Below are positions 1 to 48,726 of a stretch of 64,000 bases of DNA, piece by piece. The DNA lies in assembly GCA_043814315.1 (NCBI GenBank), contig JBDRKE010000005.1:28220-92219 (forward strand), given 5' to 3'. The position numbers and the translations under genes were made by a program. Source of the stretch: Candidatus Omnitrophota bacterium (GTDB lineage Bacteria; Omnitrophota; Gorgyraeia; Gygaellales; Profunditerraquicolaceae). Numbering within the stretch: the stretch's first letter is position 1; each line of letters opens with the position of its first letter. The notes below the pieces were generated by a model. The model was not told the DNA's origin, made no database searches, and saw nothing but the letters and a program-made list of their open reading frames with translations.

Positions 1-3000
1 TACAAAACATTATGCCCTATTTCATGAAATAGTACCTCGAAGAGCAATTTTATGTCTTTGGCATCTTTTATTTCTTTGAGAAAATCCTTCCCTGCCTTGT
101 ATCCGCTGCTCATTCCTCCTCGATATTGGTCTATTATCTGTCCTTCTTCTCTAGCTAATCGAGCCAAGCCTAACTGAATATCTGTATCAACTCGATTTGC
201 ATTAAGGATATCGCCAATGAGTTTTAAATTTTCTGTATTTTTTAGAAACGGATAGTGTTGTATTGTGATTATGCCGGCAGCCCTAACATAGACCTTAAGA
301 ACAAACAGAGAAAACTGATTATCGCTCAGCAAGAGGTCTACCAAATCGAGAGAAGTATTATCCAATAGCTCCTTTGCAAGAGGGTATACTATTGCAAGAC
401 CTTCCTTCCTGGTTTCTTTAGATTGAATATCAAATTTGTAATAGAAGTGAGTATAGATGAAATCGATAAACCTCTTGTAAGCTTTATTATTTCCCATCTC
501 CGGCAAGACTTTATCTATTATCTGTTCTATCGCTTCTTTTACCAGCTGTTCTTTAGTTTCATCTTTATCTCTTCTGACCTTATTAACTAAATTCGATAGG
601 AGCCGGATGAGAAAGCTTTCATCTTGAGCTTTGAGGGTTTCTGCGGGTAAGCCGTTTAGAACACCCATTACGTACTCTAGCGAGTTATTTCTGTAAAACT
701 GGGAATAGCTCATTTCATCGATATCAAGTTCTTTTGGCTTCTGCTCCATCGGCGAGCCGGCGGCTCCTATCACCTGCAGCCAATTTTTATCCTGCGGCCC
801 TGTAAAATATCCTCCATATTCTTTTTCTAGATTATTAGTAATTCGTCTCACATGAGCTTTCTGGTCATACGAACCACCAAGCTTTCCAGAGAATCTCGCA
901 TCTGCTGCTTCCCTATCAAAAGGCACTCCGCTAGAACCATAATAAACAAAATCTCTCTTTCCAAATCTAGTCGAACTTATATCAAATCTTCCGGCGATTT
1001 TATCAGTGAATAACCTATCTTCGGAACCGGCATTTGACGGCTCCAAAAGATTATCAATTTTATCCCGGGCTATTCTTTGGATCAAAAGAGTGACGTCATC
1101 TCTGCTTCCTACATAAACGGTGAAGTCTTTTTCTCCTGGGTCTCCTCCAGCAAGCAATTTATATTGGCCTTTATGGTTATTCCAAAGCCATTCGTCTATT
1201 TTAGGATAACTTTCAGGCTGTACCGTTAAGTGCAATTTCCAGCCACCTTTCTTTATATATTCATCATGTGCTGCTCTATCCGTAACTCTGTAACCGGGTT
1301 TGCCAGGCCAAAGTTCATCTTTCTCCTTAACCAAGATTCTTGTTAAAGCATCTATTCCTTCTTGAGCGTCATCTATTGCCTCTTGGATACCTTTAACTTG
1401 TCCTGATGCTTTGCTTAGTAAATTCCAAATCTGCTCTGATTTTTCTCCTATCCTGACAAGCTGCATACACATTACAAATAAAGTAACTACTTTTTCTCTT
1501 TCTTCGGCAACCGAAGCCGTTGTCCACCATGGAGATGCGTGCTGAATCGCTGCTTGGCGAGAAACTCTCCCCTCCTGAAACGTTATATTCCAACGAGATG
1601 GATTTCGGCTTTCTGCAATCTTAAGCGATACGTTTTTCTCTACTATTTTATAAGCATACTCTGTCCCTTTTGCAAGATAGCCACTTATTTGAGAAAGATA
1701 CATATTGGAATCGAGAGGGGAGGGAATGTGAATCGGCGAGCCGGCGGCGCCTTCTGCCTGCTCCATCGGCGAGCCGGCGGATGCCATAAAATATGTTTCG
1801 GTTACTGGGCTGGAAGAGACTGGTTTTACTAATAAATCAAACAAGCCGGTTGTTATCGAAGCATCAGTCTGTCTATATAAACCTGTGTTTATCTTCCCGG
1901 GGACAGAATTCCCGTATAGATCAGAGTAATCAAATTCTGACCGCCCCTGGAACAATTCTATTTTGTATTTCTTATTAACCCCTTGCTGAACCTTGGTTGT
2001 TTGAACAGGCCTGTATAGCGAAGCCACAACAGGAAGGCCTGTCTTTTGCGACACAATATCCAACACCCCATATAGTTCATCGATGCCCTTTGACCCAAAC
2101 TGGCTGCTTTCTTCAACGAAGATGGCCGGCTGCCTAATGCCTTGTTCGTCTTCCAGTATTCTTAATCTTACTATCCTTCTGGTGATAACTCTTCTATTAG
2201 CGTCCAATAAGGCTACGACCTTATTTGTTCCGTTAACCAAATATCCCGTAAGCCCCCTGTTCAAGTCGTTGCCATATGCGCAGCTCTGGCAGGCTGTTGA
2301 GCCGGGGTAATTACCAATATTAAATAAAGTATAAAAGTCCCCGGTAAACTCGGCGGTCAGGCCCTCTTCTAATCGACGCTGAATTGTTTGTTGCCAATTA
2401 CCTATCTTTTCAATCCTTTCTTTGAGATCCTTAAGACCATCTATGTTTTTTAATTCTTCATACAAAGATGTATTTTCTTTTTTAGCTTTTCCCTTGGCTT
2501 CTTTAATTAGGGCTTGCTCTTCCTGAGGAAGGTTTTCGGCTTCAATGTTGATAATCTCATCTATTGTTGCGCCATAGTCGTTACTTGCATATTTCCATTG
2601 TTTAAAATCATTGCCTACCTCTGTTCTTAATGCTTCAAATATATTATTGTAGATTTCCCCATTTTCTGCTCCCGAGATTGTACGTAAGTAAATATCAATT
2701 AACCTATAAATATTCCTTCCCTGGTGGTCTGTCCACTTGAATCTGGAATTATGCGCGGCATATTGTTTTAGTTTTTCCAGAAACTCACCTTCGTTTTCTA
2801 TTGTCTTTATTTGAGTCTTGAACCGCGCAAGTAAAACATCCGCTTCAATCAAGGCTAATTTCTCTGCTAATCCATTTATCTTGCTATCGTTATTTTGTCC
2901 GGTTGACAGCAGATCATCAATTATTGCTTTGCTAAGCTCTCCAAACTCATTGTTTATGTGTTCTGGAAATAGCTTTGCCTGCGCTTTTAAATATGTGTCA

Positions 3001-6000
3001 ATTGCTTTTGAGTATTGCTCCAGATAAAACATTAACTTATCATAGAACTTATCGGAATTGTCTATCTGGGATGGGTCAAATTCGGCGCTGATAGCTTTCA
3101 AAAGTTTAGAGAGCAGCTCGCCTTTTTGGTCGTATGAATATCCCGAGAAAAAAACCAATTGTTCGTACAGTTTATTTTTAAGAGTAGCTAGCTGGTCGCG
3201 AAACCCCTTGTTCGCATTCATGGATGCTATCAATTGCCTTATTGTATTTAAGGAGCCCATTTCCGGGCTTATCCTTAGTAATGCTTCAAAGAAAATATGG
3301 GGCATTTGCACTGCGGGCTTCGGGAGCTCTATCTGTTTAAATAGTTCGGCTATTGTCCTTGTTATGCTCTCCGGATAATAACTTAATTTAGTTGTTGCAT
3401 ATTGTCTGTCCTGATAAAGGCTCCTTAGCTGCTTCCAGGCTTCTTTTTTCTGTTGATTGTCATCCAATAATGTTTTTATTGCTTCTAAATATTGGAAAAT
3501 TAATGTATTTGAAACCAATGTGTCACGGCTGTCTGATAGAAATTTATTGGCAAACACCGCCTTTTTGGGCCCTTCTATCTTTCCAGCACCTTTTAAACTA
3601 TCGATTAATTTTAAGATTACTGAATTGTCTGTGCTCTGGTTGAATAAAATTTTAAGATAGATCCTATTTTTGCTCTCAGAGGGTTGGTACCTATATTGAA
3701 CTGATAACTCCGTAAATAATTCCTCTTTTTGCTGTTCGTTAATTGACAGCATATCCAATGTAATTATTGCGTCTGTCAGGAAGCTCTCTCTTGCTTCTTG
3801 CAATATACTTTCTAACTTGAGCTTTAAAATATCAATCAAATTAAGCTTATTGTCTGAGGCGATATTGTTGAGTTCGGCGAGCTTGTTTGCCTTATCTATT
3901 TCCTGGAGCACGCGTCTCAGCTCGTATGTATTCTTACCCTGAAGTTGCATGGCTTGCGAGATTGGCTCAAGCTCGTCTATTTTCTGCTGCAAAACAAAAA
4001 GGTTTGACAATATCCATTCGATTCTTCTTAAGACAAATTCAGCGTTTGGGTACCCCTGTAATTTTTGTTTAATGTTTCTAGTCATTTCATCCAAGGAGAG
4101 CTTGGGATCATCCCCTATAGTTCTGATAAGCTCCTTGATTTTGTCAATGCTGACATATTCTAGCAATGCATTTAAATCCGGGATCGGAACATAATACTGG
4201 TTTGGTTCATTTCTAAAATATTTATCAAATGTCTCCTTTACTATCCCAATTGTATCTTTCGCTGCAAATAAAACATCAAGTAAGCTGGTTTTTTCGTCCT
4301 CCCCAAGCCTTTTTTCAGCCGGATGAAGCGTAATCTCTCTATTAAGATTATAGGCAATTTCGTTAATCGCTGATTTAAACGAAGGATTAGATAACCTTTC
4401 CAGCGGCTTTTCGCAATTGTTCGCTTTTTCTTTAAGATAGCGCGCAAGTTTAATATTTATCTCAAGCGCCCTTGTAATCATTACACTGGGTGATTGTTTC
4501 AAAAGCTGCGCCTTAAGCTTTACGTCAATTTTATTGTCTTCTAAAACATTTCTCAGGAACCGATGAGTCTTACCTTTAGCATTGATAAATGCGGCATTCA
4601 AGGAGCCGTTGATCATCCCCGGTATCAGAAGAGTAGCTGGTTTCTCTATCGAAGAATAAATGGCTTTTACTCTCTCTATGTCTGAATAAAGCAGAGGGTT
4701 AACCACTTTGAGGATGCTCTCGATTCCATTGAAAAATATCGCTGGCTTTTGATTGAGGTATGAAATAAGCTCGCTAAGCCTGTTGGGTTGAGATTTAACC
4801 GCCTCCAAAAGGCTGCCATTTGAGCTGTTAAGGGCATCGTTCAAGCTGCGATTAAGCAGCTTCTCTATCAAAAAAGCAGGATCATCTAAGAGCCCGAATG
4901 CTCGCGATATCTCTTCGGTATACGGAGCTATCTCTGGATTAAACACCTCGAGTGTTGTTCTTAACGTATTAGTAAAATGTTCTGGTGACTGCCACCAATA
5001 ATTAATAAGCGATTTGCTAAGCGTCGGGTCGGATTGTATTGCCGACAGGATGGTTTTGTTAGTGCAAAAATAGCTAAAATATTTTTCAGTAAATCGCTGT
5101 TTAAGCTCTAGGCCTATCTCTTTGCTTATGAATACATTTTCAATAAATTTAGATATATCCCCACCGGATTCTTTAAAAGCTTTATTTAAAGTGCCGTTGA
5201 CTGTTTCTTCAATGAAAAGAGCGGGGTCTCCCATAGAAGAATATATCCTCTTGACAGCCGGTAAATAAGGAATTAGCTCCTTATTGAATGCTTGGAATAA
5301 TGCTAAATTGGACAGAAATTCAGATTGATTACTGTGTTTTATCAAATATGTTATAAAAATTATGCTAAGCCTGGTATCAAGACGTATTGCGCGCAGCAGA
5401 CCTTCTTTGAATAAATAAATTGGCATTTCAGCTAAAAGATAACTAAGCAGCTGTTCTTTAATGCCGGGGTCTATTTTTTCATTCTTTAAGACTTCTTCGG
5501 AAAACTTATTGATGAATTCTTCTGTCGTGAGTTTGCTTTTGTCCAATTCTGGGCTTCTAAAGATATCATTAAAAACTCCATTAAGAATGGGCTCGATAAG
5601 GAAATCGGGATGCGAAAAATAACGGTAAAGAATTGTTATTTCCGCTACATAATAGGCAAGGGCGGGGTTCAGTTGTTTTAAGATTGCTTCTAGATTTTTT
5701 ACCAAAAACCCCGACTGTTTTGACAAAGATGTTATTATGCCTTTCCGGATATCTTTTTCTTCCTGGGGTGCATTTTCAAAAGCGCCCAGTATCAGTTGGA
5801 ATAAATCAGGTTTATTTGCAATAAGAGTGCCCAGCGCTTTTTTTACTTGGGAATAGATGTTGTAATATTTAGCTACCGCGGCTTTAGTCACCAGTTGTTC
5901 GATAAGCTCCTTTTCTTTACCAGCATAACGCTTAATCAGCCCTTCAGTATTGTTGTCATAGAGAAATAGGTAGAGGGCTACCTCTTCAGAGGCATCGCTA

Positions 6001-8414
6001 AATTTACGTAATTCCTCTATGGCTGCTCTATGGCTAGAATCTCCGACGTCGTAAAATAATGTTTTAATGAGCATACTTTCCAAGGTTATCGCATTAATAT
6101 CACTCTTAGAAATAACCTTAACGAACGCCATTGGAAGCAAGTCTTTATTTTCATCACTTAGCTGCTCTTTTAGCGCCTTAAGCGTTTTTTGCTGTTCTTC
6201 ATTCAGCAAATGCTTTGCAGCCGCATCTCTGATTGTTTCAGAATAACGCTGATAATTTTTTGCATCATCGCCATAGTCTTCATTAATCTCTCCGAGTCTG
6301 TCTTTTCCTTTCGTTATTTCAATTTTTGATTCACTTAAATAAAATTTGTAATTATAGGGGAAATTTTTGGGAGAGGTAAGGTAAATATCAGAATCGTACA
6401 AGGTCACCTGCTCTACTTTTAATTTACCTTCCAGCAAGTTTTTGGCTCGATTGAAATGATATTTCCTGATAAGCTCTTTCCTGTTTGCTATCGTTAAAGA
6501 AAGAGTGACTATAACCGCAATAAGCCCCAGCATGCCGCTTAGCATTTTTGCCATAAGCAGATAATTTTCTTTCTTTTGTGTTTTATGATACTCTGCTTTT
6601 TGTAGAAGCGCATCCTCGATGGCTTGTCTATTTCTAATTTCTCTGCCGTCGTAAACATGCTTCGCATCTACAAACATCGCCCTATGCCTTCCCCAGATAA
6701 AACTGCCCCTCCAATCGGTTTGAAAACCTGCTTTATCATAGAGGTCTTTAACCGGCACTAGATAGACCTTTTCCGAATGTGCCTCATAGAGCGTATATTT
6801 TTCTGCCAGTAGGCTATGGCGTGTTTTTCGCAATGCCTCGTATTCTTTCTCCCCTTCTTCTTTATCCTTCTTGTCTTTGCCTTTGCGCGACTTCTGCCAG
6901 GATTGCTCTTGTTTAATGTATATTTCTTTTAAATCTTGGGGAAGGTTTTCAATTACAAAACTCTCGTAAGCTTCGTAATTTTGAAATTTTCCATATGTTT
7001 TCTTGGCTTTCGTTGTCTCTTCGGAAGCTTGGACTTTTTGAGGATTTATATTGACGGTGGCTAGTGCTGCAACTGTGCCCAGCCCCCACTTAAGAAAACC
7101 CCTGCGGCTGATTTCTTTGTCAACAATACCAGATTGATCTTTGCCTTGCATTGCCGAAGAGGCGGCTTTTTTCTCCATCGGCGAGCCAACAGTTTCTTGT
7201 TTTTCCAGAGGTATATGTTCTATAACTATGTCTCCTATCTCTGAGGGGCTGCCTATGTCTCCACCTTTAAACGAAATACCGATTATCCTCTCACTATATA
7301 GCGGAGGTTCTGGCCTGGCGGGACTGCCGGCTATAGTTCCGTTCTTGATAGCTCCCATTATCCCCCCTTCGCCTCCAGCTAATGGACTAAACGCAATCCC
7401 CCCTGAAAAATAACTCCTTATGGTCTGGCCAAAGGGAGTAGAAACTGGAACCTTCAGGTCGTACTCCCCCTCTTTGAAGGATCTCTGGTACTCTTTAAAA
7501 TACGTGCTCTTTGACCAAGGCGTCTTTGAAGTCAGGCCGTTGAGGTTACCTTTATCAATAAGATAGGAATAGAGGCCACCCTTGCCATAGAGCCTGGCCT
7601 TAAACCACTGGGCTAAGATTAAAGAGTAGTAAACCTGTCTTAGGGGAGCGTACCTTTTGGCGATGTTAACGTCTTTGGTTAATTTGGGGATAATGGATTC
7701 GCGAATAAGTTCGGATGCGTATTCATTAAGCTCTTTTAGCCGCGGGTCATCAAAGTTGTAAACAGCTGAGCCCTTCAAATAATCCTGCTCCAGCATGACT
7801 TTAAGGGTGGCCTTGTAAATATAGGCATTGTCCTGTGACTCCCGGATAATAATCTCACCCGGCACAATCCAGGGCCTGGTTAAGGTAGGAATCGTGATAT
7901 TACTTGTGCCAAAAAGCTCCTCTGCCTTTTGATAAAGCTTCTCCCAATAAACCTTGCCTTCGGGTGTTTGCGGCGAAGTGAACTTAGCCGTGTCTTTCTT
8001 AAGCTGCAGGTCTGCCTCCAGGAGGATTTTACCCGCATCCGTCCTGGCTAAGGCGTCGTCAATGACCTGGTCTTCTGAGTCAGGCCGAAGATTCACCCAG
8101 AAGCTGTCATTGGGAAGATTTATTCCCACAAAGAAATAGTTAAGCAGGGTGCGCGTTGAAACTTCAACATCTTGCTCTTTAATATTTTTTAAGTCTCCCC
8201 TGTCCAGGAGGAGCTTGAAATTATTATTGAGATTATCGTAGGAAAGGTAGCGTAAATGCAGGGGCCGAAATTTATCCGGGATGAAGGAACTACGCAGCTG
8301 CGCGATATGGCCTGAGATATCCAATTGCCCGGCAACCTGGGCAAAACCCGATTGCTCAAAGACAAAACAGAAACAAAGCAGAAGTGAAAAAAACCTTAGA
8401 ATCTTCTTCGACAT
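1..8414 (-). CDS. Giant secreted or membrane-associated protein, at least 2804 codons, C-terminus beyond window start
   Basis: Minus-strand frame starts at ATG 8414 (MSKKILRFFSLLLCFCFVFEQSGFAQ, a Sec-type signal peptide) and stays open to position 3. The ORF track lists no complete minus-strand ORF of at least 60 aa in this frame over 8.4 kb, consistent with one open frame reaching the edge. Hand translation shows an internal SRRGFLKWGLGTVAALATV segment near aa 430, a TM-like segment near aa 620, a long helical low-complexity region, and an HEIGH (HExxH) motif at nt 12-26. Confidence 0.8.
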   Translation of the reverse strand, partial: MSKKILRFFSLLLCFCFVFEQSGFAQVAGQLDISGHIAQLRSSFIPDKFRPLHLRYLSYDNLNNNFKLLLDRGDLKNIKEQDVEVSTRTLLNYFFVGINLPNDSFWVNLRPDSEDQVIDDALARTDAGKILLEADLQLKKDTAKFTSPQTPEGKVYWEKLYQKAEELFGTSNITIPTLTRPWIVPGEIIIRESQDNAYIYKATLKVMLEQDYLKGSAVYNFDDPRLKELNEYASELIRESIIPKLTKDVNIAKRYAPLRQVYYSLILAQWFKARLYGKGGLYSYLIDKGNLNGLTSKTPWSKSTYFKEYQRSFKEGEYDLKVPVSTPFGQTIRSYFSGGIAFSPLAGGEGGIMGAIKNGTIAGSPARPEPPLYSERIIGISFKGGDIGSPSEIGDIVIEHIPLEKQETVGSPMEKKAASSAMQGKDQSGIVDKEISRRGFLKWGLGTVAALATVNINPQKVQASEETTKAKKTYGKFQNYEAYESFVIENLPQDLKEIYIKQEQSWQKSRKGKDKKDKEEGEKEYEALRKTRHSLLAEKYTLYEAHSEKVYLVPVKDLYDKAGFQTDWRGSFIWGRHRAMFVDAKHVYDGREIRNRQAIEDALLQKAEYHKTQKKENYLLMAKMLSGMLGLIAVIVTLSLTIANRKELIRKYHFNRAKNLLEGKLKVEQVTLYDSDIYLTSPKNFPYNYKFYLSESKIEITKGKDRLGEINEDYGDDAKNYQRYSETIRDAAAKHLLNEEQQKTLKALKEQLSDENKDLLPMAFVKVISKSDINAITLESMLIKTLFYDVGDSSHRAAIEELRKFSDASEEVALYLFLYDNNTEGLIKRYAGKEKELIEQLVTKAAVAKYYNIYSQVKKALGTLIANKPDLFQLILGAFENAPQEEKDIRKGIITSLSKQSGFLVKNLEAILKQLNPALAYYVAEITILYRYFSHPDFLIEPILNGVFNDIFRSPELDKSKLTTEEFINKFSEEVLKNEKIDPGIKEQLLSYLLAEMPIYLFKEGLLRAIRLDTRLSIIFITYLIKHSNQSEFLSNLALFQAFNKELIPYLPAVKRIYSSMGDPALFIEETVNGTLNKAFKESGGDISKFIENVFISKEIGLELKQRFTEKYFSYFCTNKTILSAIQSDPTLSKSLINYWWQSPEHFTNTLRTTLEVFNPEIAPYTEEISRAFGLLDDPAFLIEKLLNRSLNDALNSSNGSLLEAVKSQPNRLSELISYLNQKPAIFFNGIESILKVVNPLLYSDIERVKAIYSSIEKPATLLIPGMINGSLNAAFINAKGKTHRFLRNVLEDNKIDVKLKAQLLKQSPSVMITRALEINIKLARYLKEKANNCEKPLERLSNPSFKSAINEIAYNLNREITLHPAEKRLGEDEKTSLLDVLFAAKDTIGIVKETFDKYFRNEPNQYYVPIPDLNALLEYVSIDKIKELIRTIGDDPKLSLDEMTRNIKQKLQGYPNAEFVLRRIEWILSNLFVLQQKIDELEPISQAMQLQGKNTYELRRVLQEIDKANKLAELNNIASDNKLNLIDILKLKLESILQEARESFLTDAIITLDMLSINEQQKEELFTELSVQYRYQPSESKNRIYLKILFNQSTDNSVILKLIDSLKGAGKIEGPKKAVFANKFLSDSRDTLVSNTLIFQYLEAIKTLLDDNQQKKEAWKQLRSLYQDRQYATTKLSYYPESITRTIAELFKQIELPKPAVQMPHIFFEALLRISPEMGSLNTIRQLIASMNANKGFRDQLATLKNKLYEQLVFFSGYSYDQKGELLSKLLKAISAEFDPSQIDNSDKFYDKLMFYLEQYSKAIDTYLKAQAKLFPEHINNEFGELSKAIIDDLLSTGQNNDSKINGLAEKLALIEADVLLARFKTQIKTIENEGEFLEKLKQYAAHNSRFKWTDHQGRNIYRLIDIYLRTISGAENGEIYNNIFEALRTEVGNDFKQWKYASNDYGATIDEIINIEAENLPQEEQALIKEAKGKAKKENTSLYEELKNIDGLKDLKERIEKIGNWQQTIQRRLEEGLTAEFTGDFYTLFNIGNYPGSTACQSCAYGNDLNRGLTGYLVNGTNKVVALLDANRRVITRRIVRLRILEDEQGIRQPAIFVEESSQFGSKGIDELYGVLDIVSQKTGLPVVASLYRPVQTTKVQQGVNKKYKIELFQGRSEFDYSDLYGNSVPGKINTGLYRQTDASITTGLFDLLVKPVSSSPVTETYFMASAGSPMEQAEGAAGSPIHIPSPLDSNMYLSQISGYLAKGTEYAYKIVEKNVSLKIAESRNPSRWNITFQEGRVSRQAAIQHASPWWTTASVAEEREKVVTLFVMCMQLVRIGEKSEQIWNLLSKASGQVKGIQEAIDDAQEGIDALTRILVKEKDELWPGKPGYRVTDRAAHDEYIKKGGWKLHLTVQPESYPKIDEWLWNNHKGQYKLLAGGDPGEKDFTVYVGSRDDVTLLIQRIARDKIDNLLEPSNAGSEDRLFTDKIAGRFDISSTRFGKRDFVYYGSSGVPFDREAADARFSGKLGGSYDQKAHVRRITNNLEKEYGGYFTGPQDKNWLQVIGAAGSPMEQKPKELDIDEMSYSQFYRNNSLEYVMGVLNGLPAETLKAQDESFLIRLLSNLVNKVRRDKDETKEQLVKEAIEQIIDKVLPEMGNNKAYKRFIDFIYTHFYYKFDIQSKETRKEGLAIVYPLAKELLDNTSLDLVDLLLSDNQFSLFVLKVYVRAAGIITIQHYPFLKNTENLKLIGDILNANRVDTDIQLGLARLAREEGQIIDQYRGGMSSGYKAGKDFLKEIKDAKDIKLLFEVLFHEIGHNVL

Positions 8415-8574
8415 ACTTTGATTAGGTGGAGATTGCGGTCTATCAGCCTTATTGCTTTAAGTTTACTATATAGGTAAGGAATTTCAAGGTTTATATGGGG
8501 ATTTTAGGAAAGCGCTTTCAAGCCTTAAGGATTCTTTAAGGTGGGGTCGTGGTGCTGGGTTGTTTCAGCAAGAC

Positions 8575-8811
8575 CTATTTCTTCACCCATTTCATAAATT
8601 CTAACTTCTTCCAGCAGGCTTCACAGAAATCCAGGTCTGCATAGTTAACCCAAGATTCCTTTCTTGTTTCCTTGGTCCTAAAATTCTTGCCTTTATAAAC
8701 CACTAATCTACTAAAAGAAGCGCCTGGGACAGTGTAGTCAATTTCACCAATTGAATAATAAGGCTCTTTTTCTAATATCTTTTTGCAGCTATCGCATTTT
8801 CTAGTAGTCAT
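8575..8811 (-). CDS. Small zinc-ribbon protein with two CxxC pairs
   Basis: 78 aa with CDSC...CEAC. Overlaps the HEPN gene stop by 11 nt, so probably co-transcribed. Confidence 0.5.
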   Translation of the reverse strand: MTTRKCDSCKKILEKEPYYSIGEIDYTVPGASFSRLVVYKGKNFRTKETRKESWVNYADLDFCEACWKKLEFMKWVKK

Positions 8812-9253
8812 GATTTTCTCCTTGCTCTTTTAAAAGTATCTGTTTTGCGGCCTTGAGGAACCTCTTTGCGCTTTCGATAACCGCCTGAGCCCCTTCCTGG
8901 GAAAATTTTCGTCGGTAATCAGCGTCTTCTCGCAGGATCATAGAATTGTTGAAATCTTCGGCTAACTTAGGGTCTAATTTCTTCTCCCGGACAAAAAAGG
9001 CCCTTATCGCAAGGTAAAGACAGTAATGGCCCTTTTCGCGGTAGCCACGAGAATAAAGTAATGCCCTGGCAGAATGAAACATAGAGTAGTAACCTTTGAT
9101 GGTAGCCCATTTAAAGTTTCCTTGATCATAATCTTCCTCAGCTGATTTAAGGTCTTCTTTAGCATCTTCGAGTTCAAGGCTCACCAATTGCCTTGCTGGT
9201 TCAAAAGGAAAGATTTTCTTTTTTTCAATGCACTCTTTAAAGGATAGCTTCAT
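8801..9253 (-). CDS. HEPN domain protein, toxin of a HEPN/MNT pair
   Basis: 150 aa, helical, with an Rx6H-type motif (RGYREKGH). Overlaps the upstream MNT gene by 17 nt. Confidence 0.6.
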   Translation of the reverse strand: MKLSFKECIEKKKIFPFEPARQLVSLELEDAKEDLKSAEEDYDQGNFKWATIKGYYSMFHSARALLYSRGYREKGHYCLYLAIRAFFVREKKLDPKLAEDFNNSMILREDADYRRKFSQEGAQAVIESAKRFLKAAKQILLKEQGENHDY

Positions 9254-9803
9254 TTATCTCCCTTTCCCAAAGGACCTTGCCCTTTTCTACCTGCTCAAGA
9301 AACACCTTGCCTTGCCTATCTCTTTTTAAAAGCTCCTCTGGACTGTTTATGATCGGCTGTATCTTGCGTTTGTAGAGTTTAGTAGAATAGGAGAATTTAT
9401 TGGCTAGGAACAGCACCTTTTCTTTTTCAGAGCTAACAATAAAGAGGTCAATGTCGCTATCTTCGACATCATTCCCTTGAGCCCAGCTGCCAAAGAGGAC
9501 TATTTTGTAACTTAACCTTTTGAGCTTCTCTACTAAAGGCTCAATCAAGAGTAGATTAGCAAGAATCTTGAATTCTTTAAGATAAGGATCGGCCTTATTA
9601 ATAGAATAGAAATACATCCGGCCATTTTGCTTGCGGTTGATAAGGCTAGCTCGATACAGACGAACTAAGGTGTAGTGGGTCGAACTCGGACTTAAGCCTA
9701 TCTTTCGACTAATCTCTCTCTCATAGAAAGACTGACTCGGATTAAGAACGAAGAATCTTAAAATCTTCTGATAATTAGTGGAAATAAGATATGTGTTAAT
9801 CAT
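9237..9803 (-). CDS. Minimal nucleotidyltransferase (MNT) with N-terminal winged-helix domain, antitoxin partner of HEPN
   Basis: GSWAQGNDVEDSDIDLFIV matches the GSx9-13DxD nucleotidyltransferase signature. The N-terminal 70 aa are wHTH-like. Confidence 0.7.
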   Translation of the reverse strand: MINTYLISTNYQKILRFFVLNPSQSFYEREISRKIGLSPSSTHYTLVRLYRASLINRKQNGRMYFYSINKADPYLKEFKILANLLLIEPLVEKLKRLSYKIVLFGSWAQGNDVEDSDIDLFIVSSEKEKVLFLANKFSYSTKLYKRKIQPIINSPEELLKRDRQGKVFLEQVEKGKVLWEREINEAIL

Positions 9804-12523: not shown

Positions 12524-14005
12524 TTACTTTAATCTAAAAATTAATCCCAGGCCGTCTTCCGCCATTACTTCAAATCGAGGATCAGGCCTGATCTGATGAA
12601 TCAACCCCGAAAAATAATTCTTTCCCACGTAGCCGTAGCGCGTGTCAAACTCATCCCGGAGCGCCGCATAAGGATCAGGACTCCTTCCAAAGGCAATATC
12701 CCGATACAGATTATATTTCTTAGAATTCCAGTAATACATGTAAATAGGGTCAAGCGTCACAAAATAGTCGTTTTGAGGATTGACGCCGATTAAGTATTGG
12801 GAATCAGACCAGTTGGAATGAAAAATCGTCTCCCCTGCCGGAATATTTTGCGCCATCCATGCCCCTACCGCCTGGAAGTGCCCGTTGTAAACCGCTTCTA
12901 CCTGGGCAAGCTTAGAAAAAGCGCGATAGGTGCGCGCCCCCATCAAGGCTAACAGCAAGACAACTCCTATCCCTAAACTCCACCTTAACCCCCTGCTTCT
13001 CTTCAACGCAGGCAGGCGCCCTTCCCCTTGCCACCAGTCAGACACATAAGAAGCCAGCGCAATTAATATTAGGGGATAGCCGTGGGTAATGTAGCGCTGA
13101 GAAAAAAATGAAAACACAAAGAAAAAGGCGGCAACAGACATCCAGATGGCTGTTGAGGGCCTCACCTTACTTTTCTGGCTCGCCCCTAAGGATATGAAAA
13201 GAATCACTGCGATGATAATAAAAGGGTGCTCCAGGATATAGTCCCTCGTGCTGATGGGGAAAAACTCTGCTCCCAGCTCCAGGCCCCATTTCAGCGCAAA
13301 GACGGGCACCAGAATGCCATTTAAATAAAAGATGAGCAGATTGTTAGGAAAGTTGGGGTGTATTAAAAATCCCAATACAAGACCGAGGGCAACCGCCCGT
13401 AAAGAACGCCAGTAAAATTCTTTGCTGTTAGCAAAGCGCGCCGATTCCGCGAGCACCGCAAACACAAGCAGATAAGGGCTGGAAACATGGCTGAGCGCGT
13501 AAACAACCGTAATAATAAATAGCGCTACTTGCTTTTTCAGTATTAAAAAATGGATGAAGAGCAGGGTGAGCCCCATGACCAGAACCATGTTTCTGGCCTG
13601 GCTTATAGCCTGCACAAATGGAGCCGAACACAAGAACATGAACAAAAAAACAGGAATTAGGTTTTTTGTCGGACAGTAGCGCCTGAGCATCCAAAAATAC
13701 ACCAGATACAAAAAAACAGTCCACAGGCAGGCACTTATCTTGCCTGCCATAATCATATTGGGCAAAAGAGTGAAAGGGATAAGCGCTACGTGATAGAGAA
13801 GGTCTTTATCGGCGAAGTTTTTGGCAAAGGTAGAGTAGCGGGCCCAGTGGAAATCGTATCTTAGGCCCTTTTCGCGGATGAACTGGGCCATGCGCATATG
13901 CAGATACCCGTCTGCTCCGAAAAGCGTAGCAATCGAAAACTGCGCAACGACCAAAACAGCGATGCTTAACAAAAGAACGGCGGTGAGCGTTATTTTATAT
14001 GGCAT
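12524..14005 (-). CDS. Polytopic membrane protein, GT-C fold glycosyltransferase-like (GT39/GT83 ArnT/PMT-like)
   Basis: 493 aa with many hydrophobic helices. The N-terminal loop FADKDLLYH is an acidic motif typical of GT-C enzymes. Confidence 0.4.
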   Translation of the reverse strand: MPYKITLTAVLLLSIAVLVVAQFSIATLFGADGYLHMRMAQFIREKGLRYDFHWARYSTFAKNFADKDLLYHVALIPFTLLPNMIMAGKISACLWTVFLYLVYFWMLRRYCPTKNLIPVFLFMFLCSAPFVQAISQARNMVLVMGLTLLFIHFLILKKQVALFIITVVYALSHVSSPYLLVFAVLAESARFANSKEFYWRSLRAVALGLVLGFLIHPNFPNNLLIFYLNGILVPVFALKWGLELGAEFFPISTRDYILEHPFIIIAVILFISLGASQKSKVRPSTAIWMSVAAFFFVFSFFSQRYITHGYPLILIALASYVSDWWQGEGRLPALKRSRGLRWSLGIGVVLLLALMGARTYRAFSKLAQVEAVYNGHFQAVGAWMAQNIPAGETIFHSNWSDSQYLIGVNPQNDYFVTLDPIYMYYWNSKKYNLYRDIAFGRSPDPYAALRDEFDTRYGYVGKNYFSGLIHQIRPDPRFEVMAEDGLGLIFRLK

Positions 14006-14091: not shown

Positions 14092-17000
14092 TTATTCTTC
14101 TTCTATAATGACGGGGGCCACGCAGGAAACCCGGTCTTTAGGCTGCAACCTGATAAGGCGCACCCCCTGCGCAGACCTGCCGGTGGTGCGGATATCTTTT
14201 ATGGCGCAGCGCAGGAAAATGCCGTTTTGCGTAATGGCCATCAACTCGTCATTATCGCCAACCGACTTAAGGCTGATCGCTTCACCATTTTTCGCGGTCA
14301 CCTTCATATTAATAACGCCCTTGCCTCCCCTGCTGGTGAGACGGTACTCTTTGATGGGCGAGCGCTTGGCAAAACCTAATTCTGTCACGGTTAAAACGGT
14401 AGAGTCTTTTTGGGGGACCACCATACCGATCACTTCATCCTTCTTGGCCAAAGAAATGGCGCGCACGCCGTGCGCCCCCCTTCCCATGTCCCGCACCTTG
14501 CTTTCTGAGAATCTCAAGGCCTTGCCCTGACGCGTGCCAATGAGCAGCTCCTGTTTTCCGTCGGTCAACTCGACACCGATCAACTCGTCATTCTTATCCA
14601 AAGTGATTCCGATAATGCCGGCCTTGCGCGGGTTGCCGTAGGCGTCCAGTTTCGTCTTTTTGATCTGGCCGAGTTTCGTCACCATCACCAGGTACTTGTC
14701 CTCGGAAAATTCCTTTACGGGGATAGTCTTGCTTATTTTAACGCCTGGCTCCATCTGCACCAGATTCACAATGGCCTTTCCTTTAGTGGTGCGGCTAGAC
14801 TGGGGGATCTCGTAAACCTTAAGCCAGTGCACCTGGCCTTTGTCCGTAAAAATCAAAAGGTAGTCTCGGGTTGAGGCGATAAACAGATGCTCCACGAAAT
14901 CCTCTTCTTTAACCTCCGCGCCCGTCACGCCTGATCCGCCGCGCCTCTGTTTGCGGTAGGCACTGACCGGCAAACGCTTGATGTAGCCACCGTGGCTGAT
15001 GGTGACAACCACGTCCTCTTCGGCGATTAAATCTTCTATCTCCAGCTCTTCTACCTCAGCCACGATATCGGTCCTGCGATCATCTGCGTATTGCTTTTTT
15101 AGGCCCTCCAGTTCCTCCTTGATGATGCCTTCGATTTTTTTCTCGGAGGCAAGGATCGCCTTGCAGAGCTCTATCTTCTTAAGGAGCTCGGCGTATTCAG
15201 CGTCAATCTTGTCCCTCTCAAGGGCGGTTAGGCGCTGCAGCTGCATCTCCAAGATCGCCTGCGCCTGAATCTCGGAAAGGCCAAACTCCTTCATCAAGCG
15301 CTCTTTAGCCGCTTCAACGCTCTTAGAGGCTTTAATCACCTTAATGATCCTATCAATAAATTTCAAGGCGATCTTTAAGCCCTCTAAAATATGGGCGCGC
15401 TTTAAGGCCTTGTCCAGCTCAAACTGGGTGCGCCTGCGGACAATCACCTTGCGATGCTCAACATAAGCATCCAGCACCTGCTTTAAATTCAAAACCCGCG
15501 GCCGGTTTTCCACCAGAGCGAGCATGATCACGCCAAACGTTGTTTTAAGCTGCGTGTGCTTAAAGAGTTGGTTCAAGACAATCTGCGATTCGGCATCCCG
15601 CTTAAGCTCGACGACCACGCGCATACCTTCCTTGTCAGACTCATCTCGAATATCAGAAATGCCCTCGATCTTCTTCTCATCCACCAGGCCTGCTATGGCC
15701 TCGATGAGGCCTGCCTTTTGAACCTGATAAGGGATCTCTGTAATCACGATAAAGTCCTTGCCGTTTTTCTGATGCTCAACGGTTGCCCGGGCACGCACCG
15801 TAAGCTTGCCCTTGCCTGTGGTGTAGGCATCCTTGATGCCGGCTTTCCCGCAGATGACTCCCCCCGTCGGAAAATCAGGGCCCTTGATATAGCGCATCAG
15901 GTCTTTGAGTTCTGCCTCAGGATGGTCCAGCAGATAAATGATGGCATCCGCCACTTCCTTCAAGTTGTGCGGCGGGATATTAGTAGCCATGCCTACGGCA
16001 ATACCGCTTGAGCCGTTCACTAATAAATTGGGAAGAGCCGCAGGCAATAAAAGGGGTTCTTGCAGGGAGGCATCAAAGTTCGGGCCGAAATTTACAGTAT
16101 CCTTGTCAATATCAGCCAGCATCTCGTCGGAGATTGCAGCGAGCCGCGCCTCCGTGTTATGGCTTATAAAGCCATTTGACACAAAGGAGTGACAAGGACT
16201 ATCAACTTTTATTGAATAAACCCTCTGCTTGCCAGAATCTTCAACAAAAGCAACTCTATCAAATATGTACTTATTTTCCCTCAAGGTCTCAAATAACCCT
16301 AGGTCTTCTTTATCAAGAGCTCTGGTTAGTCTCGGCCAATACTTCTCTATTTTTACATATCTGTCGATATTGTGTTTCTTAAGCCATTCTATGTGTCCAC
16401 GGTATTTTTTGTTGCACCTACTACTTTTTCTGCGGATATAATCAGCTATAAAGGGTATAAAATCCGTTTTCGACATATTCCATCCATCGCTGTTGCGATT
16501 ACAGATATTTGTTATCTTCTGGCGGCTTTCCTTTGTGCTAAAATTTATTTCATTTTTGAATAGCCCGAGGTTGACGTGCCCCCTAATATACAATCTAAAA
16601 TAGCGTTTCTGTTTATGAAACCTGAGCCAAGAATCAATCCCAAATCTTAATAGTAAAATCTGTAATTCTTGGAGCAATTTTTCACTGGTTGATATAAAAC
16701 TAATATCGGGATTTCTTTTACCAATACAAACGCTGCCATCTCCTTCCGCATATCCTTTTATAAATGAGCTTACCGATTTTCGTGAAGATTTAAAAATGAT
16801 AGGGGGCACCTTTTTCTTTTGAGCACGAGACTGTAGCAGACCGATATTTTTTAAAAATTCCCTAACTTGGCTTGAATGAATTTCCAAGTAAACACAGTTC
16901 TTTTTACCGAAACCAGGCGGCTTCCTCACGAATTCATGCAGTCGGCAATCAGGAAATACTTTTTTAAAGCTTAGCTTAAATTTATCTATAAACTCTTTAT

Positions 17001-17844
17001 CGCCATTGCAGAAATCAATGTGCTTTTTGCTTATAGACCCCTCCGCAATTATTGCCCCCAAAATAAAAGCGAGGTCTTTATTCATGGCACGAGGGAGCCT
17101 GTGCTTCTGCGCCCGATTTTTAATCTCTGGATAATATTGTTTTAGCGAAAGCTCTTCTTTAGGAAATAATACACTGCTCCTACTTATCACAGTACAGTCA
17201 CCAATTTTTACCTGGCTTAATAATTTCCAGACAAATTTTGGCTTGAAACTATTTCTCTCCCATACAAGAATGGGATGATTAAGGCTGCCGCATAAACTAA
17301 AACCTCTAAAAGTGGTAATTTTCTTAGTTGGGTGCTCTCCAGAATCAAACCACCTTGATACATGATTTATTTTATTATTTAGAGAGAGCGTGTGAAAATT
17401 GGCTTTTGAATGATGGGATATATCATTTATTCTTTGCAGCCCTTGCTCCGTAATAATGAAAGTGTCCCCCGAGACGCAGTAGCGCATCGCGGCAGCGGCG
17501 TCCCCGTCGATTGATCCAAAATTTCCTTGGCCCTCTACCAGTGGATAACGCAAAGAAAAATCCTGCGCCATGCGCACTAAGGTATCATAGACTGCTACAT
17601 CTCCGTGAGGGTGATATCGGCCAAGCGTATCTCCAACGATGCGCGCGCATTTTTTATAAGGCTTATCATGCTCGAGATTCAAATCTTTCATCGCAAATAA
17701 GATTCTGCGATGCACCGGCTTTAAGCCGTCGCGCACATCCGGAAGGGCGCGGCCTACAATTACGCTCATGGCGTAATTTAGATATGAGTCCTTTACCTCT
17801 TCTTCAATATAAACAGGAATTATTTTTTCGTTGCGGGTATACAT
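14092..17844 (-). CDS. gyrA: DNA gyrase subunit A containing a 441-aa intein
   Basis: N-terminus has the AAAMRY active-site Tyr followed directly by Cys. The extein resumes as ...HN|[13 protein letters not shown]. Extein length 809 aa. Confidence 0.95.
16156..17478 (-). mobile_element. GyrA intein with LAGLIDADG homing endonuclease domain
   Basis: Starts with Cys immediately after the catalytic Tyr (MRY|C) and ends in HN before Thr. Two LAGLIDADG-like motifs: [15 protein letters not shown] and [12 protein letters not shown]. Confidence 0.85.
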
Positions 17845-18010: not shown

Positions 18011-22047
<4,037 letters not shown>

Positions 22048-23271: not shown

Positions 23272-24615
23272 TTATTGTTTAATAATTTGAATAACATGCT
23301 CTACTTTTTGTTTTAAGGCCTCATTCGTATTCAAGCCCCCCTTGATTTTATTATAAGAGTGTAAGACGGTCGTGTGATCTTTTCCCCCAAAATGGTCTCC
23401 TATCTCAGGCAAAGACAGCTCTGTCAACTCTCTGCTTAAATACATCGCAACCTGGCGCGGGAGAACAATGTTTTTGTGGCGGCGCTTGGTCTTAAGCTCA
23501 TGCAGTGATACCCCGAATTCTTCAGACACGCAACGCTGTATAAAATCTACCGTGATAAGCCTCTTGGGTTCTTTTAACAAGTCCTTTAAAACCTCTTTGG
23601 CCAGGCCCAACGTGATGGGCTCTTCTTCTAGTAAAGAATAGGCGATGGTGCGGATCAGCGCCCCCTCTAACTCCCTAACATTTGTTTTAATGAGTTGGGC
23701 GATGAAAAAAATCACTTCATCCGGAACGGTTACAGGCTCTCTTTCAATCTTTTTCTTTAAAATAGCCACGCGCGTTTCTAAATCAGGCGGCTGGATATCT
23801 GTGGTGAGCCCCCAACCAAAGCGCGAGACAAGCCTATCTTGCAAATTGGCAATTTCCTTAGGGGGTCGGTCAGAGGAAAAAACAATCTGTTTATGGGAGT
23901 CGTAAAGCGTATTAAAGGTATGGAAGAACTCTTCTTGGGTTGACTCTTTCCCTGCGATGAAATGGATATCGTCTATCATCAGGACATCCACATTTCTGTA
24001 TTTTTGCCGGAAGCGAGAAGTCGAATGATGCTGGATGGCGTCGATGAGTTCATTAGTAAATTTTTCCGACGATAGGTAGCAAATTTTAGGGTTGCCCGTA
24101 GATTTGCTGAGTATAAGGTTACAGATAGCCTGGATAAGATGGGTCTTGCCCAGGCCCACCCCCCCGTAAATAAATAAAGGATTGTACGCTTTAGCAGGAG
24201 AATCGGCAACCGCTAAAGAGTAAGCGTGAGCATGCCGGTTAGACGAACCCACAACAAAATTTTCGAACGTATAGCGCGCATTCAGGCTGGAGGTGTCGTG
24301 ATGCCCGGCAGCCTTGATGGTCAGGCCCGCCGGATTTAATGGGTCGCGCACTTCCCGTTTCTCTTTGATGCCGGATTCAAAAGATACGGCGATTTCTTGC
24401 TGGGAAGATACATGGCTCAGCGCCTGCTGGATGATGAGGCTATAATGTTTCTCGACCCACTCTCGAAAGAAATCATCCGGGGCCTCTAGAACTAAACCGT
24501 TCTTATTTTTTGTGCGCGGCGTTAAGGGCAAAATCCAGGTTTCAAAAACCGTATCCCCTAACCGTTCTTTTAAGAACCCATGTGCCTGCTGCCAGGCTTG
24601 GAGAATATCAGCCAT
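23272..24615 (-). CDS. dnaA: Chromosomal replication initiator DnaA
   Basis: AAA+ domain with GGVGLGKTHL Walker A, C-terminal DNA-binding domain, 447 aa. Confidence 0.95.
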   Translation of the reverse strand: MADILQAWQQAHGFLKERLGDTVFETWILPLTPRTKNKNGLVLEAPDDFFREWVEKHYSLIIQQALSHVSSQQEIAVSFESGIKEKREVRDPLNPAGLTIKAAGHHDTSSLNARYTFENFVVGSSNRHAHAYSLAVADSPAKAYNPLFIYGGVGLGKTHLIQAICNLILSKSTGNPKICYLSSEKFTNELIDAIQHHSTSRFRQKYRNVDVLMIDDIHFIAGKESTQEEFFHTFNTLYDSHKQIVFSSDRPPKEIANLQDRLVSRFGWGLTTDIQPPDLETRVAILKKKIEREPVTVPDEVIFFIAQLIKTNVRELEGALIRTIAYSLLEEEPITLGLAKEVLKDLLKEPKRLITVDFIQRCVSEEFGVSLHELKTKRRHKNIVLPRQVAMYLSRELTELSLPEIGDHFGGKDHTTVLHSYNKIKGGLNTNEALKQKVEHVIQIIKQ

Positions 24616-43615: not shown

Positions 43616-43900
43616 GTAATGCGAGTTCTTTTAAAATCCCTGCGGTGCGCGTTGGAATTCTGATAATTGTTGAACCAACAATAATCTAATGGGAGCTTGG
43701 AACTTCCTTGGCGCTTTGGCGCTAAGGAGAGAGCACCCACCTGAAACGAAATCGGTTCAGACTGTCACTCCAACGGCACGCTGCGGGGATTTTTTTATTG
43801 AGCCCCGCGGCATTCTTGCATTCGTAAGAATGCAAGAAGCGGGGCGAAATAATCCCGAGCCTGCGCAGTCAATTTCGAAGAAATTGACAAGCGTTTAGGC
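43616..43900 (+). ncRNA. Candidate structured leader or small RNA upstream of rarA (riboswitch-like alternative pairing)
   Basis: Begins downstream of the consensus promoter. Contains hairpins ccttggcgc-tttg-gcgctaagg and GCGGGG-U7-...-CCCCGC (43784-43808), a long hairpin with GNRA loop cattcttgcattc-GTAA-gaatgcaagaa (43811-43838), and a second GCGGGG (43839-43844) that could pair alternatively with CCCCGC. No convincing CDS: the 69-aa track ORF is low-complexity. Confidence 0.35.
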
Positions 43901-48500: not shown

Positions 48501-48726
48501 GAAAATCTTAAACATGGACAGCAAGGGAAAACAGAAAATAATCTCTGCGGAAGTTCCTCTCTCTGAAATGTTTGGTTATGCGACGGCCCTGCGCTCTTTA
48601 AGCAGCGGCCGTTGCAATGCCTCTATGGAGTTCCTCAGATACGCACATGTCCCCGGTGAAATCGCGCAAAAAGTCAAAGAGGAGCAGAAAAAGAAGGAAG
48701 GGGAGAAGGCGAAAGCGAAATCCTAA
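45574..48726 (+). CDS. Elongation factor G paralog with a 350-aa N-terminal extension (TM helix, coiled coil, Pro/Glu-rich linker)
   Basis: The C-terminal 700 aa is a complete EF-G: G domain [26 protein letters not shown]; G' insert; domain [14 protein letters not shown]; domain V. The N-terminus [24 protein letters not shown] is a TM helix, followed by about 230 aa of heptad-like E/K/L/Q-rich sequence and [25 protein letters not shown] single frame with no stop. An internal Met ([12 protein letters not shown], nt 46627) would give a canonical 700-aa EF-G on its own. Confidence 0.8.
46435..46515 (+). repeat. 18-nt tandem repeat (CCCGARGAGCCCCTAAAG, three copies) encoding a PEEPLK linker
   Basis: cccgaagagcccctaaag cccgaggagcccctaaag cccgaggagccccctaag read directly. 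Confidence 0.8.

Follow-up and report, generated by a model that had tools for sequence, protein, structure and literature searches.

Giant, mostly unannotated proteins are a signature of the Omnitrophota and the suspected basis of a predatory or episymbiotic lifestyle. Published examples, which include multi-enzyme and domain-poor proteins, have been reported as giant open reading frames (ORFs) (Seymour et al. 2023, PMC10066038), as "Archaeovorins" (West-Roberts et al. 2023, 10.1101/2023.11.21.568195), and under the class name "multi-enzyme metabolic cluster" (Nielsen & Lui 2026, 10.64898/2026.06.07.730766). Post-translational cleavage has been proposed for Omnitrophota giant proteins, with the cleavage points called unknown (10.1101/2023.11.21.568195), and the published work leaves undecided whether the giants act as single chains or are cleaved, and where. 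Here we describe a gene at the edge of a 64,000-nucleotide stretch of contig JBDRKE010000005.1 from a Candidatus Omnitrophota bacterium (the whole stretch is called the window below). The gene encodes P0001 (NCBI ABIG31_00515), a protein of 4,210 amino acids (aa), and it is nearly certain that it belongs to a very large Omnitrophota-restricted family in which a constant N-terminal head and a constant C-terminal tail enclose swappable cargo modules separated by a short linker.

The family shares its phylum with the published giants, its N-terminus is signal-peptide-like where theirs commonly has a signal peptide, and the cargo of the relatives of P0001 resembles theirs (methyltransferases, HATPase_c, GNAT, HAD, HD, PGM/PMM, glycosyltransferases, and HEAT repeats). 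The published studies cover proteins of at least 10 thousand amino acids (kaa) or ORFs of more than 20 kb, the Archaeovorin study being aimed at giant genes of tens of kaa, whereas P0001 measures 4.2 kaa and its family 0.45 to 7.4 kaa. Archaeovorins are described as carrying a C39/S8 peptidase near the N-terminus, SecA-like, HEAT, and glycosyltransferase (GT) domains, and many transmembrane (TM) helices; Pfam finds none of these domains in P0001, which has one or two TM-like segments. Archaeovorin genes adjoin a secretion locus resembling type II secretion systems and type IV pili (T2SS/T4P), with pilZ genes downstream, and in this they differ from the P0001 gene, which has HEPN/MNT, methylase, glmS, and gyrA/B genes upstream and whose syntenic counterparts are followed by pyrR-pyrB-pyrC. 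No mention of a shared head, tail, or linker motif was found in the accessible parts of the Omnitrophota giant-protein studies, and full-text literature searches, which have many subscription papers outside their reach, returned no other description of the head/linker/tail layout. The layout is apparently undescribed.

The frame runs on the minus strand from the ATG at position 8414 to base 3 of the window and is translated through 2,804 codons without a stop, an open run whose chance probability is near 1e-79 by our own calculation (about 6% of random codons are stops at ~40% GC). The GC content of positions 1 to 8414 is ~40% and uniform at 0.38 to 0.42, and the longest ORF in the other five frames is at most 106 aa. 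The ATG is the earliest start codon within the open frame, homologues share the same initial Met, and no Shine-Dalgarno sequence was obvious in the inspected bases upstream of it. P0001, known from a metagenome-assembled genome of Candidatus Omnitrophota (97-kb contig), is 100% identical to the translation across all 2,804 residues, so that the window contains about the first two-thirds of a 12.6-kb gene; the other 1,406 codons, among them those of the conserved tail, lie past its edge. A preliminary description of this DNA, made from the letters alone, had reported a giant ORF running off the window edge and had associated giant proteins with episymbiotic or predatory lineages. The 8.4-kb open frame is indeed part of one genuine 4,210-codon gene, and the source phylum is one such lineage. 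That the gene was made by chimeric assembly, or by sequencing errors that fused adjacent genes, is conceivable for a metagenome-assembled genome but very improbable here. Besides the unbroken frame and even composition, complete head-to-tail ORFs of 0.8 to 3.2 kaa occur in dozens of independent assemblies (45 such ORFs in the loci fetched for comparison), database members reach 7.4 kaa, the gene occupies the same position in 24 genomes, and part of it (in module M2, see below) is collinear with five other proteins over ~950 aa.

The same description recognized no characterized family, and searches of Pfam, NCBIfam, PHROGs, PADLOC, and PDB sequences with the whole protein and with each module returned nothing above threshold. 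It had also suggested that giant surface proteins may act in cell-cell attachment or toxin delivery; Pfam and NCBIfam scans of the protein and modules revealed no adhesin-type domains or repeats. A homologue search with P0001 did return more than 525 giant proteins, and 119 among the matches listed were mapped by BLAST. These are 1.5 to 4.9 kaa long, contain very different Pfam domains, and each cover just 12 to 34% of the query; all those named by source are labelled Omnitrophota/Omnitrophica. The region from aa 1 to ~380 of P0001 is aligned by 119 of the 119, at 34 to 78% identity, and aa ~4060 to 4210 by ~110 of them, at their own C-termini. Over the intervening 3.6 kaa, similarity is patchy and involves few proteins only.

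The head was found by phmmer in 7,452 clusters at 50% identity; among 150 listed clusters (proteins of 444 to 7,391 aa), it begins within ~20 residues of the N-terminus in almost all. In species-representative genomes, 443 head loci were found, and most of the 80 listed are labelled Omnitrophota. The AlphaFold2 (AF2) model of the ~310-aa head is confident, and Foldseek found no fold neighbours for it in the PDB or among viral structures. Near its end and behind it, the predicted local confidence (pLDDT) falls below 50 at aa 327-375, 384-393, and 400-410. In the tail of P0001 (aa 4037-4210), a GGIDFRxLP box is joined through a disordered, Pro-rich spacer to a five-helix bundle that forms the very C-terminus, is modelled at pLDDT >90, and has generic fold matches only. 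In an HMM search of the family, the median distance from the end of the tail to the C-terminus was 2 aa. Being predicted as an all-alpha five-helix bundle, the tail shows neither the beta-barrel translocator of type V secretion (T5SS) nor the beta-sandwich C-terminal domain of type IX secretion (T9SS). Head and tail occur together in 180 of 215 family proteins, and the rest may be contig-end fragments. In the fetched loci, eight complete head-bearing ORFs lack the tail, and six of the eight are followed by a tail-only ORF in the same locus. Frameshift-like breaks (homopolymer runs or masked N runs) divide several family genes, which could be pseudogenes or sequencing errors, and some genomes have two head-bearing genes or gene fragments in tandem; examples are at L077 (8184-13410) and L079 (10001-17568). 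Many head-bearing contigs in the genome collection are labelled "uncultured Planctomycetales" (TPA; L003, L007-L009, L019-L021, and others) and one, L039, "Thermodesulfovibrionia"; synteny and 60 to 77% head identity to Omnitrophota loci suggest that these labels reflect mislabelling or misbinning.

Between head and tail, the modules are set apart by a short motif with the family consensus A-S-S-P-[VIL]-[EQD]. P0001 has it in the form [AG][GA]SP[MV]EQ at aa 410, 2214, (2224), 2553, 3056, 3066, and 3640, and in a weaker form at 4036; the original regular expression counts seven copies, three of them inside the window, where an extra AGSPI copy at aa ~2224 brings the copies of the DNA core to four. 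Cut at these positions, P0001 falls into the head (1-410), modules M2 (411-2213), M3 (2215-2552), M4 (2554-3055), M5 (3067-3640), and M6 (3650-4036), and the tail (4037-4210). The pattern [AS][SG]SP[VILM][EQD] was observed 112 times in 120 proteins versus 9 times in shuffled sequences, making it ~12 times commoner than chance; a relaxed form has 663 occurrences versus 59 expected. Its density is 0.39 per kaa in family genes versus 0.015 per kaa in 273 kaa of neighbouring ORFs, and two of the four matches in the latter are themselves fragments of family genes. The median spacing from linker to linker is 478 aa, about the length of one protein. Where the cargo is recognizable, the linkers fall between domains, separating aldolase, TIM, further modules, PMM, and the tail in P0072 and GNAT, methyltransferase, phosphoesterase, and further modules in P0039. 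About a third of the members have a linker 7 to 37 aa before the tail box, and in the AF2 model the linker lies within low-confidence, probably disordered sequence. Points at which homology between paralogues breaks off lie within 40 aa of a linker 2.9 times as often as expected (209 of 964 versus 73; the maximum of 200 randomizations was 95).

The chromosomal setting gives a view of how the cargo has changed. The giant gene lies ~17 kb from the minimum of the cumulative GC skew (near 25 to 26 kb, between yidC and dnaA, the latter at 23272-24615), is co-oriented with replication, and has HEPN/MNT, methylase, glmS, gyrA/gyrB, dnaN, and dnaA genes upstream. Twenty-four of the 80 closest loci have a family gene at the same site, directly after dnaN-gyrB-gyrA-glmS-methylase, with pyrR-pyrB-pyrC downstream wherever the 3' side is available. 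Flanking housekeeping proteins are 73 to 83% identical (median) between the syntenic genomes. The head is the same in all 24 syntenic genes, as is the tail in those whose 3' end was recovered, but no cargo is shared: heads of positional orthologues are 55 to 78% identical and tails 41 to 55%, whereas the aligned fraction of the cargo has a median of 0 and a 90th percentile of 5.5%. Across the family, distances between heads are correlated with those between tails (r = 0.62, a value reached by 0 of 200 permutations). Since the ends are conserved, the cargo cannot be aligned, and the distances of the two ends are correlated, we conclude that the two ends have been passed on as a pair, with the cargo between them exchanged. 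Another site at which family genes recur lies downstream of the gene for EF-G; the window contains the EF-G block with no family gene after it.

This turnover raises the possibility that the linker acts primarily at the DNA level, as junction microhomology for cassette exchange between paralogues, with the peptide motif as a by-product. The four window copies (741-770, 1725-1754, 1758-1787, and 7170-7199) use the identical codons GGC TCG CCG ATG GAG and form the top direct-repeat family (D1) of the region. All four contain the GC-rich sequence GGCTCGCCGATGGAG, over 15 to 24 nt, in a gene of 40% GC, and three also share the upstream sequence GCCGCCGGC. Given the peptide, such identity has a probability of ~1e-7, and it fits a recombination role together with the clustering of homology breakpoints at linkers and the replacement of cargo between co-inherited ends. 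However, the codons vary freely in other genomes while the peptide is retained, and the exact 21-nt linker is missing from related metagenome contigs (seven matches, all to unrelated high-GC DNA); because of these two observations, the constraint on the linker appears to lie generally at the peptide level. A stretch of 15 to 24 nt is also short for homologous recombination. We therefore regard a primarily DNA-level linker as improbable, although it would not be exclusive of the other readings discussed below. The DNA identity suggests that the linker spread recently within the P0001 gene. Internal translation starts at the linkers were also considered and rejected, as neither a Shine-Dalgarno sequence nor a suitably placed start codon is present in the linker DNA.

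All cargo of P0001 is dark at the sequence level. M2 is mostly helical, and its stretch at aa ~880-1330 contains units of ~120 aa, at least three of which were recovered by regular expression (from aa ~936, 1064, and 1179) and a probable fourth by eye (~1265); a self-BLAST of M2 for repeats gave nothing at E ≤ 0.01, so that the units were recovered by motif search only. From aa 1260 to 2204, M2 is collinear with P0002-P0005 and P0016 at 26 to 43% identity, and this homology ends just before linker 2. Its last part, the GN..ACQSC domain, is conserved in five relatives, and a profile of it had no PDB or Pfam match. The GWKLHL domain of M3, in which GWKLHL itself is invariant in five sequences, also occurs as stand-alone proteins of 214 to 221 aa (P0213 and P0214, 46 to 47% identity), and it had no PDB sequence match. 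One relative, P0215, matches Pfam RamC_N (PF25816) at E = 7.2e-5 and 22.8 bits, below the cut-off of 27, and the window copy does so at E = 0.19. RamC_N is the N-terminal domain of class III lanthipeptide synthetases, and we take it to have an OspF/SpvC-type phospho-Ser/Thr lyase fold with catalytic Lys/His in a G-x-K-x-H context. As a lead from this sub-threshold match, the GWKLHL domain may be related to the RamC_N lyase domain. M4 has no detected homologues and no Pfam or PDB match, and the start of M5 is weakly GGDEF-like (Pfam, E = 0.063) and degenerate.

The sequence features listed in the preliminary description are all present: the Sec-signal-like N-terminus, with an n/h/c layout read by eye and conserved in the family; the Tat-like SRRGFLK with its hydrophobic stretch; the TM-like segment at aa ~624-646; the weak helical repeats, as ~120-aa units around aa 900-1300; and the zinc-metalloprotease-like HEIGH, at aa 2797-2801 (nt 12-26). 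The last lies in the orphan module M4, and an HExxH arises by chance in 3.5% of shuffles. The two globular-looking regions of that description correspond to the GN..ACQSC domain of M2 and the GWKLHL domain of M3. Coordinates are collected in Table 1.

Table 1. Features of the giant gene and its upstream region in window coordinates; a slash marks a putative signal cleavage site
Feature	Residues (aa)	Position (nt)	Strand	Description
Promoter-like site TTGAAA-16-TAAACT		8460..8487	(-)	~45 nt upstream of start codon; consensus scan, 9/12 matches, weak
Coding part	1-2804	3..8414	(-)	codons 1-2804 of 4,210; stop-free translation; 100% identical to P0001
Signal-peptide-like hydrophobic helix	1-25	8340..8414	(-)	ends in nearly invariant FEQSGFA/Q; AF2 helix 3-28
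Head domain	26-340	7395..8339	(-)	alpha/beta; ~80 invariant positions in 38-sequence alignment; defining N-terminal module of family
Spacer	341-425	7140..7394	(-)	low-confidence, probably disordered; ends in linker copy 1 (VGSPMEKKAASSAMQ; motif DNA 7170-7199)
Cargo module M2	426-2212 (~1,790 aa)	1779..7139	(-)	mostly helical; repeats; conserved globular end
Tat-type signal	434-462	7029..7115	(-)	SRRGFLK + hydrophobic stretch (aa 434-453) + VQA/S; M2 start
TM-like hydrophobic segment	624-646	6477..6545	(-)	Kyte-Doolittle window score 2.25
GN..ACQSC..DLNRGLTGY.VNG globular domain of M2	~2019-2200	1815..2360	(-)	29 invariant positions, 6 sequences
Linker copies 2a + 2b (AGSPMEQAEGAAGSPIH)	2213-2229	1728..1778	(-)	repeat family D1 copies at 1725-1754, 1758-1787
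Cargo module M3	2230-2551	762..1727	(-)	between linkers 2 and 3; C-terminal half has stand-alone homologues
GWKLHL...GEKDFTVY...RFD domain of M3	2371-2545	780..1304	(-)	25 invariant positions
Linker copy 3 AGSPMEQ	2552-2558	741..761	(-)	motif search; repeat family D1
First half of cargo module M4	2559-2804	3..740	(-)	M4 ends at aa 3055, outside window; contains HEIGH

In the relatives, the cargo includes glycolytic enzymes, SAM methyltransferases, GNATs, kinases, phosphoesterases, GGDEF domains, and others, some proteins having HEAT or GT domains, and the modules look like autonomous units. Domains typical of the periplasm (M23 peptidase, PBP transglycosylase) and of the cytoplasm (PRTase, LMW phosphatase, glycolytic enzymes, SAM methyltransferases) are mixed in the same relatives with no membrane helix between them, and beyond aa 60 no internal hydrophobic segment is present in 106 of 172 full-length members. 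A topology test, in which periplasm-type and cytoplasm-type domains were placed between hydrophobic segments in P0013 and P0027, had a contradictory outcome.

Two kinds of putative targeting signal bear on the fate of these chains. The N-terminus of P0001, MSKKILRFFSLLLCFCFVFEQSGFA/QV, reads by eye as the n/h/c layout of a Sec signal, and Q21, G23, F24, A25, and Q26 are conserved family-wide, leaving a G-F-A/Q site visible; the segment and its conserved site suggest a putative envelope targeting signal. The Tat-type motif of M2 is canonical but internal, 27 residues after linker 1, and it would be N-terminal only if the chain were cut there. It scores 20.2 to 21.4 bits against Pfam TAT_signal, just under the cut-off of 22.7, and an internal copy in P0035 is above the cut-off. 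Of 215 family proteins, 18 have an internal Tat-type signal, which in most cases follows the head directly and otherwise comes after a linker.

We favour the reading that the family consists of carriers or polyproteins, in which swappable modules are targeted to the envelope or beyond and the linkers serve as exposed hinge or processing sites, and we would give this reading as a whole a probability of about one half. The head and tail would be the constant handling parts through which the chain is directed to the cell envelope, fixed there, or assembled there; since they are extremely conserved next to fully variable cargo, they presumably interact with constant cellular machinery. The cargo would be the variable payload, and the linkers the exposed hinges at which the chain would be cut, so that the gene would act as a polyprotein releasing separately sorted modules. 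Envelope targeting, judged from the sequence, is somewhat probable. Cutting of the chain at the linkers is somewhat less probable than not, although cleavage would be the simplest explanation for a six-residue motif in disordered inter-module sequence, for Tat-type signals just behind it, and for enzymes of mixed compartments in one chain.

Several observations weigh against this reading. Export and cleavage are both inferred from sequence, and a protease domain was not recognized in the head, the tail, or the adjoining genes; the head also has no invariant His or Cys. Only about half of the family proteins have the strict linker motif, although the relaxed form occurs widely, and split family genes are broken at frameshift-like sites or masked runs, not at linkers. 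The nucleotide identity of the window linkers could point to the recombination role considered above. It is difficult to see how a Sec-type N-terminus and an internal Tat-type signal could go together in an uncut chain; they could instead represent a signal-anchor or a relic of evolution. A large part of the relatives' cargo needs ATP, SAM, or NAD, which argues against a purely extracytoplasmic site. Finally, the analysis of head identity versus cargo is biased, as the databases are clustered by identity.

If the N-terminal signal operates and the linkers are not cut, the product would be an unprocessed giant envelope or coat protein, exported whole, with the linkers as flexible, possibly glycosylated hinges and the head and tail as anchored ends. 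The family-wide conservation of the signal-peptide-like N-terminus fits this explanation, as does the prevalence of members without a later hydrophobic segment, which recalls the "SP-only" class reported for longer Omnitrophota proteins (10.64898/2026.06.07.730766). Ser/Pro-rich interdomain linkers are, moreover, common in secreted multidomain proteins. We nevertheless consider an uncut coat unlikely: the relatives' cargo consists mostly of cofactor-dependent enzymes of cytoplasmic type (glycolysis, SAM methyltransferases, GGDEF, kinases), internal Tat-type signals would be purposeless, a plain hinge needs no six-residue motif that is conserved and has a fixed pair of one hydrophobic and one acidic residue, and Pfam scans of P0001 and its modules detected no adhesin-type repeats.

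The same cytoplasmic-type repertoire would be at home in a membrane-tethered multi-enzyme scaffold on the cytoplasmic side, anchored by the N-terminal helix, in which fusion serves co-expression or substrate channelling. The positive-inside rule fits a cytoplasmic head, with RR preceding the Tat-like helix and a cluster of R/K residues following the one at aa 624-646, and for ~46% of longer Omnitrophota giants the prediction is a TM anchor with the bulk of the chain in the cytoplasm, according to the same study (10.64898/2026.06.07.730766). An apparently membrane-tethered EF-G in the same genome (see below) also hints at translation at the membrane. Yet the n-h-c segment with its conserved G-F-A/Q resembles a cleavable signal, which would place the head outside, and relatives contain peptidoglycan-acting domains (M23, transglycosylase). 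Complete replacement of cargo between close species is unlike core metabolic scaffolds, and the conserved linker and tail would be left unexplained. A scaffold seems less likely still than an uncut coat.

The carrier reading has a stronger form, which is also unlikely. The Omnitrophota may possess a bacterial polyprotein system of thousands of head-[module-linker]n-tail genes, whose products would be cut at ASSP[VIL][EQD], possibly by the head itself or by a dedicated protease. The released, swappable sets of enzymes or effectors would be sorted separately (to Sec, Tat, the cytoplasm, or prey via cell-cell contact), and cargo would move in and out as cassettes, with the bookends unchanged and the chromosomal loci fixed. 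Open cell-cell contact has been reported for V. archaeovorus (PMC13153191). If this form is correct, the system would be a cellular counterpart of viral polyproteins and of MARTX toxins, and its linkers would be the cleavage points described as unknown in earlier studies of Omnitrophota giants.

In their logic, MARTX toxins and viral polyproteins would be the closest analogues. MARTX proteins are the multifunctional autoprocessing repeats-in-toxin proteins of Vibrio and relatives, in which conserved ends flank variable effector modules; strains differ by shuffling of these modules, and cleavage at the intervening linkers sets them free. The comparison is an analogy and not homology. Pfam, NCBIfam, and PDB sequence searches detected none of the MARTX features (glycine-rich A/B/C repeats, Peptidase C80, RTX/type I secretion [T1SS] signal). 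MARTX toxins also lack the N-terminal Sec-like signal that the Omnitrophota family has, and they are cut after Leu, whereas the Omnitrophota linker motif differs and the cargo is largely of housekeeping enzyme type. Viral polyproteins likewise consist of one long ORF with protein-sized units and a short recurring motif between them, an arrangement that would give stoichiometric co-expression and separate sorting after cleavage. In contrast, the P0001 gene is cellular and chromosomal, has no PHROG match, and has no protease identified with it, and its cleavage is only proposed here. A third comparison is with the giant T1SS adhesins of the LapA/MpIBP type, in which a constant N-terminal retention module and a C-terminal secretion signal enclose a long variable middle. 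P0001 differs from these in having no RTX nonapeptide or Ig-like (BIg/Cadherin) repeats by Pfam and in ending in a helical bundle, and the Omnitrophota family differs in its N-terminal Sec-like signal and in a middle of enzyme-type modules instead of adhesive repeats.

A large mid-size class of Omnitrophota proteins, 0.5 to 7 kaa long and forming 7,000 or more clusters at 50% identity, has a simple head/linker/tail layout. This layout yields concrete candidate cleavage or hinge sites for metaproteomes and a rule for dividing giant proteins into structure-prediction units. The head and tail are two new conserved domains that deserve family models, and the family is a natural setting in which cargo is replaced rapidly at one fixed site of the chromosome. 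Should the linkers be mere hinges, the layout would still be a useful annotation rule for thousands of "hypothetical" giant proteins.

The preliminary description also drew attention to the position of the gene next to a HEPN/MNT module and the origin region. The origin-proximal position is real and conserved, but the neighbourhood is one of housekeeping genes (gyrA-glmS-methylase, pyrR-pyrB-pyrC) rather than an island for secretion or toxins; in the window neighbourhood, no gene for a secretion system or a protease was found near the giant gene. A viral or mobile origin of the gene was rejected in view of this neighbourhood and of only three weak or edge matches in 2.9 million viral contigs. 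The HEPN (8801-9253) and MNT nucleotidyltransferase (9237-9803) genes do adjoin the giant gene, lying together with a 78-aa CxxC...CxxC ORF (8575-8811), all on the minus strand, between it and a TP_methylase gene. The three had no matches in the other fetched loci, including 24 of the 24 syntenic ones, which marks them as a window-specific insertion. A functional link between the pair and the giant gene was rejected on this ground, and the adjacency is uninformative on function.

Other genes of the window deserve a brief record. Both gyrase genes, gyrA and gyrB (14092-17844 and 18011-21763, minus strand), encode 1,250 aa and contain inteins, with Intein_splicing and LAGLIDADG_3 domains in gyrA and Intein_splicing in gyrB; most syntenic genomes have intein-free gyrase genes of ~810 to 820 aa. 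A 493-aa ORF between glmS and tRNA-Glu (12524-14005, minus strand) has no Pfam match, and a homologue of it stands just downstream of a family gene in locus L076 (3562-5064). The EF-G gene (45574-48726, plus strand) encodes 1,050 aa, of which only the part from aa ~355 is canonical EF-G; the extension comprises a TM-like helix at aa 1-25, the sequence RPRPRR, ~230 aa of K/E-rich probable coiled coil, and Pro/Glu repeats of the PEEP type. It is 61 to 63% identical over its full length to proteins in five other Omnitrophota loci (L007, L014, L020, L023, and L025), in all of which the N-terminal hydrophobic helix is kept and a head-tail family gene lies just downstream. This EF-G is apparently membrane-tethered, judging by its predicted helix, and a link to the translation of giant proteins at the membrane is speculative. 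Finally, a 6S RNA (Rfam RF00013, 67.3 bits) is located at 43634-43793 on the plus strand, between pheT and an mgsA-like AAA+ gene.

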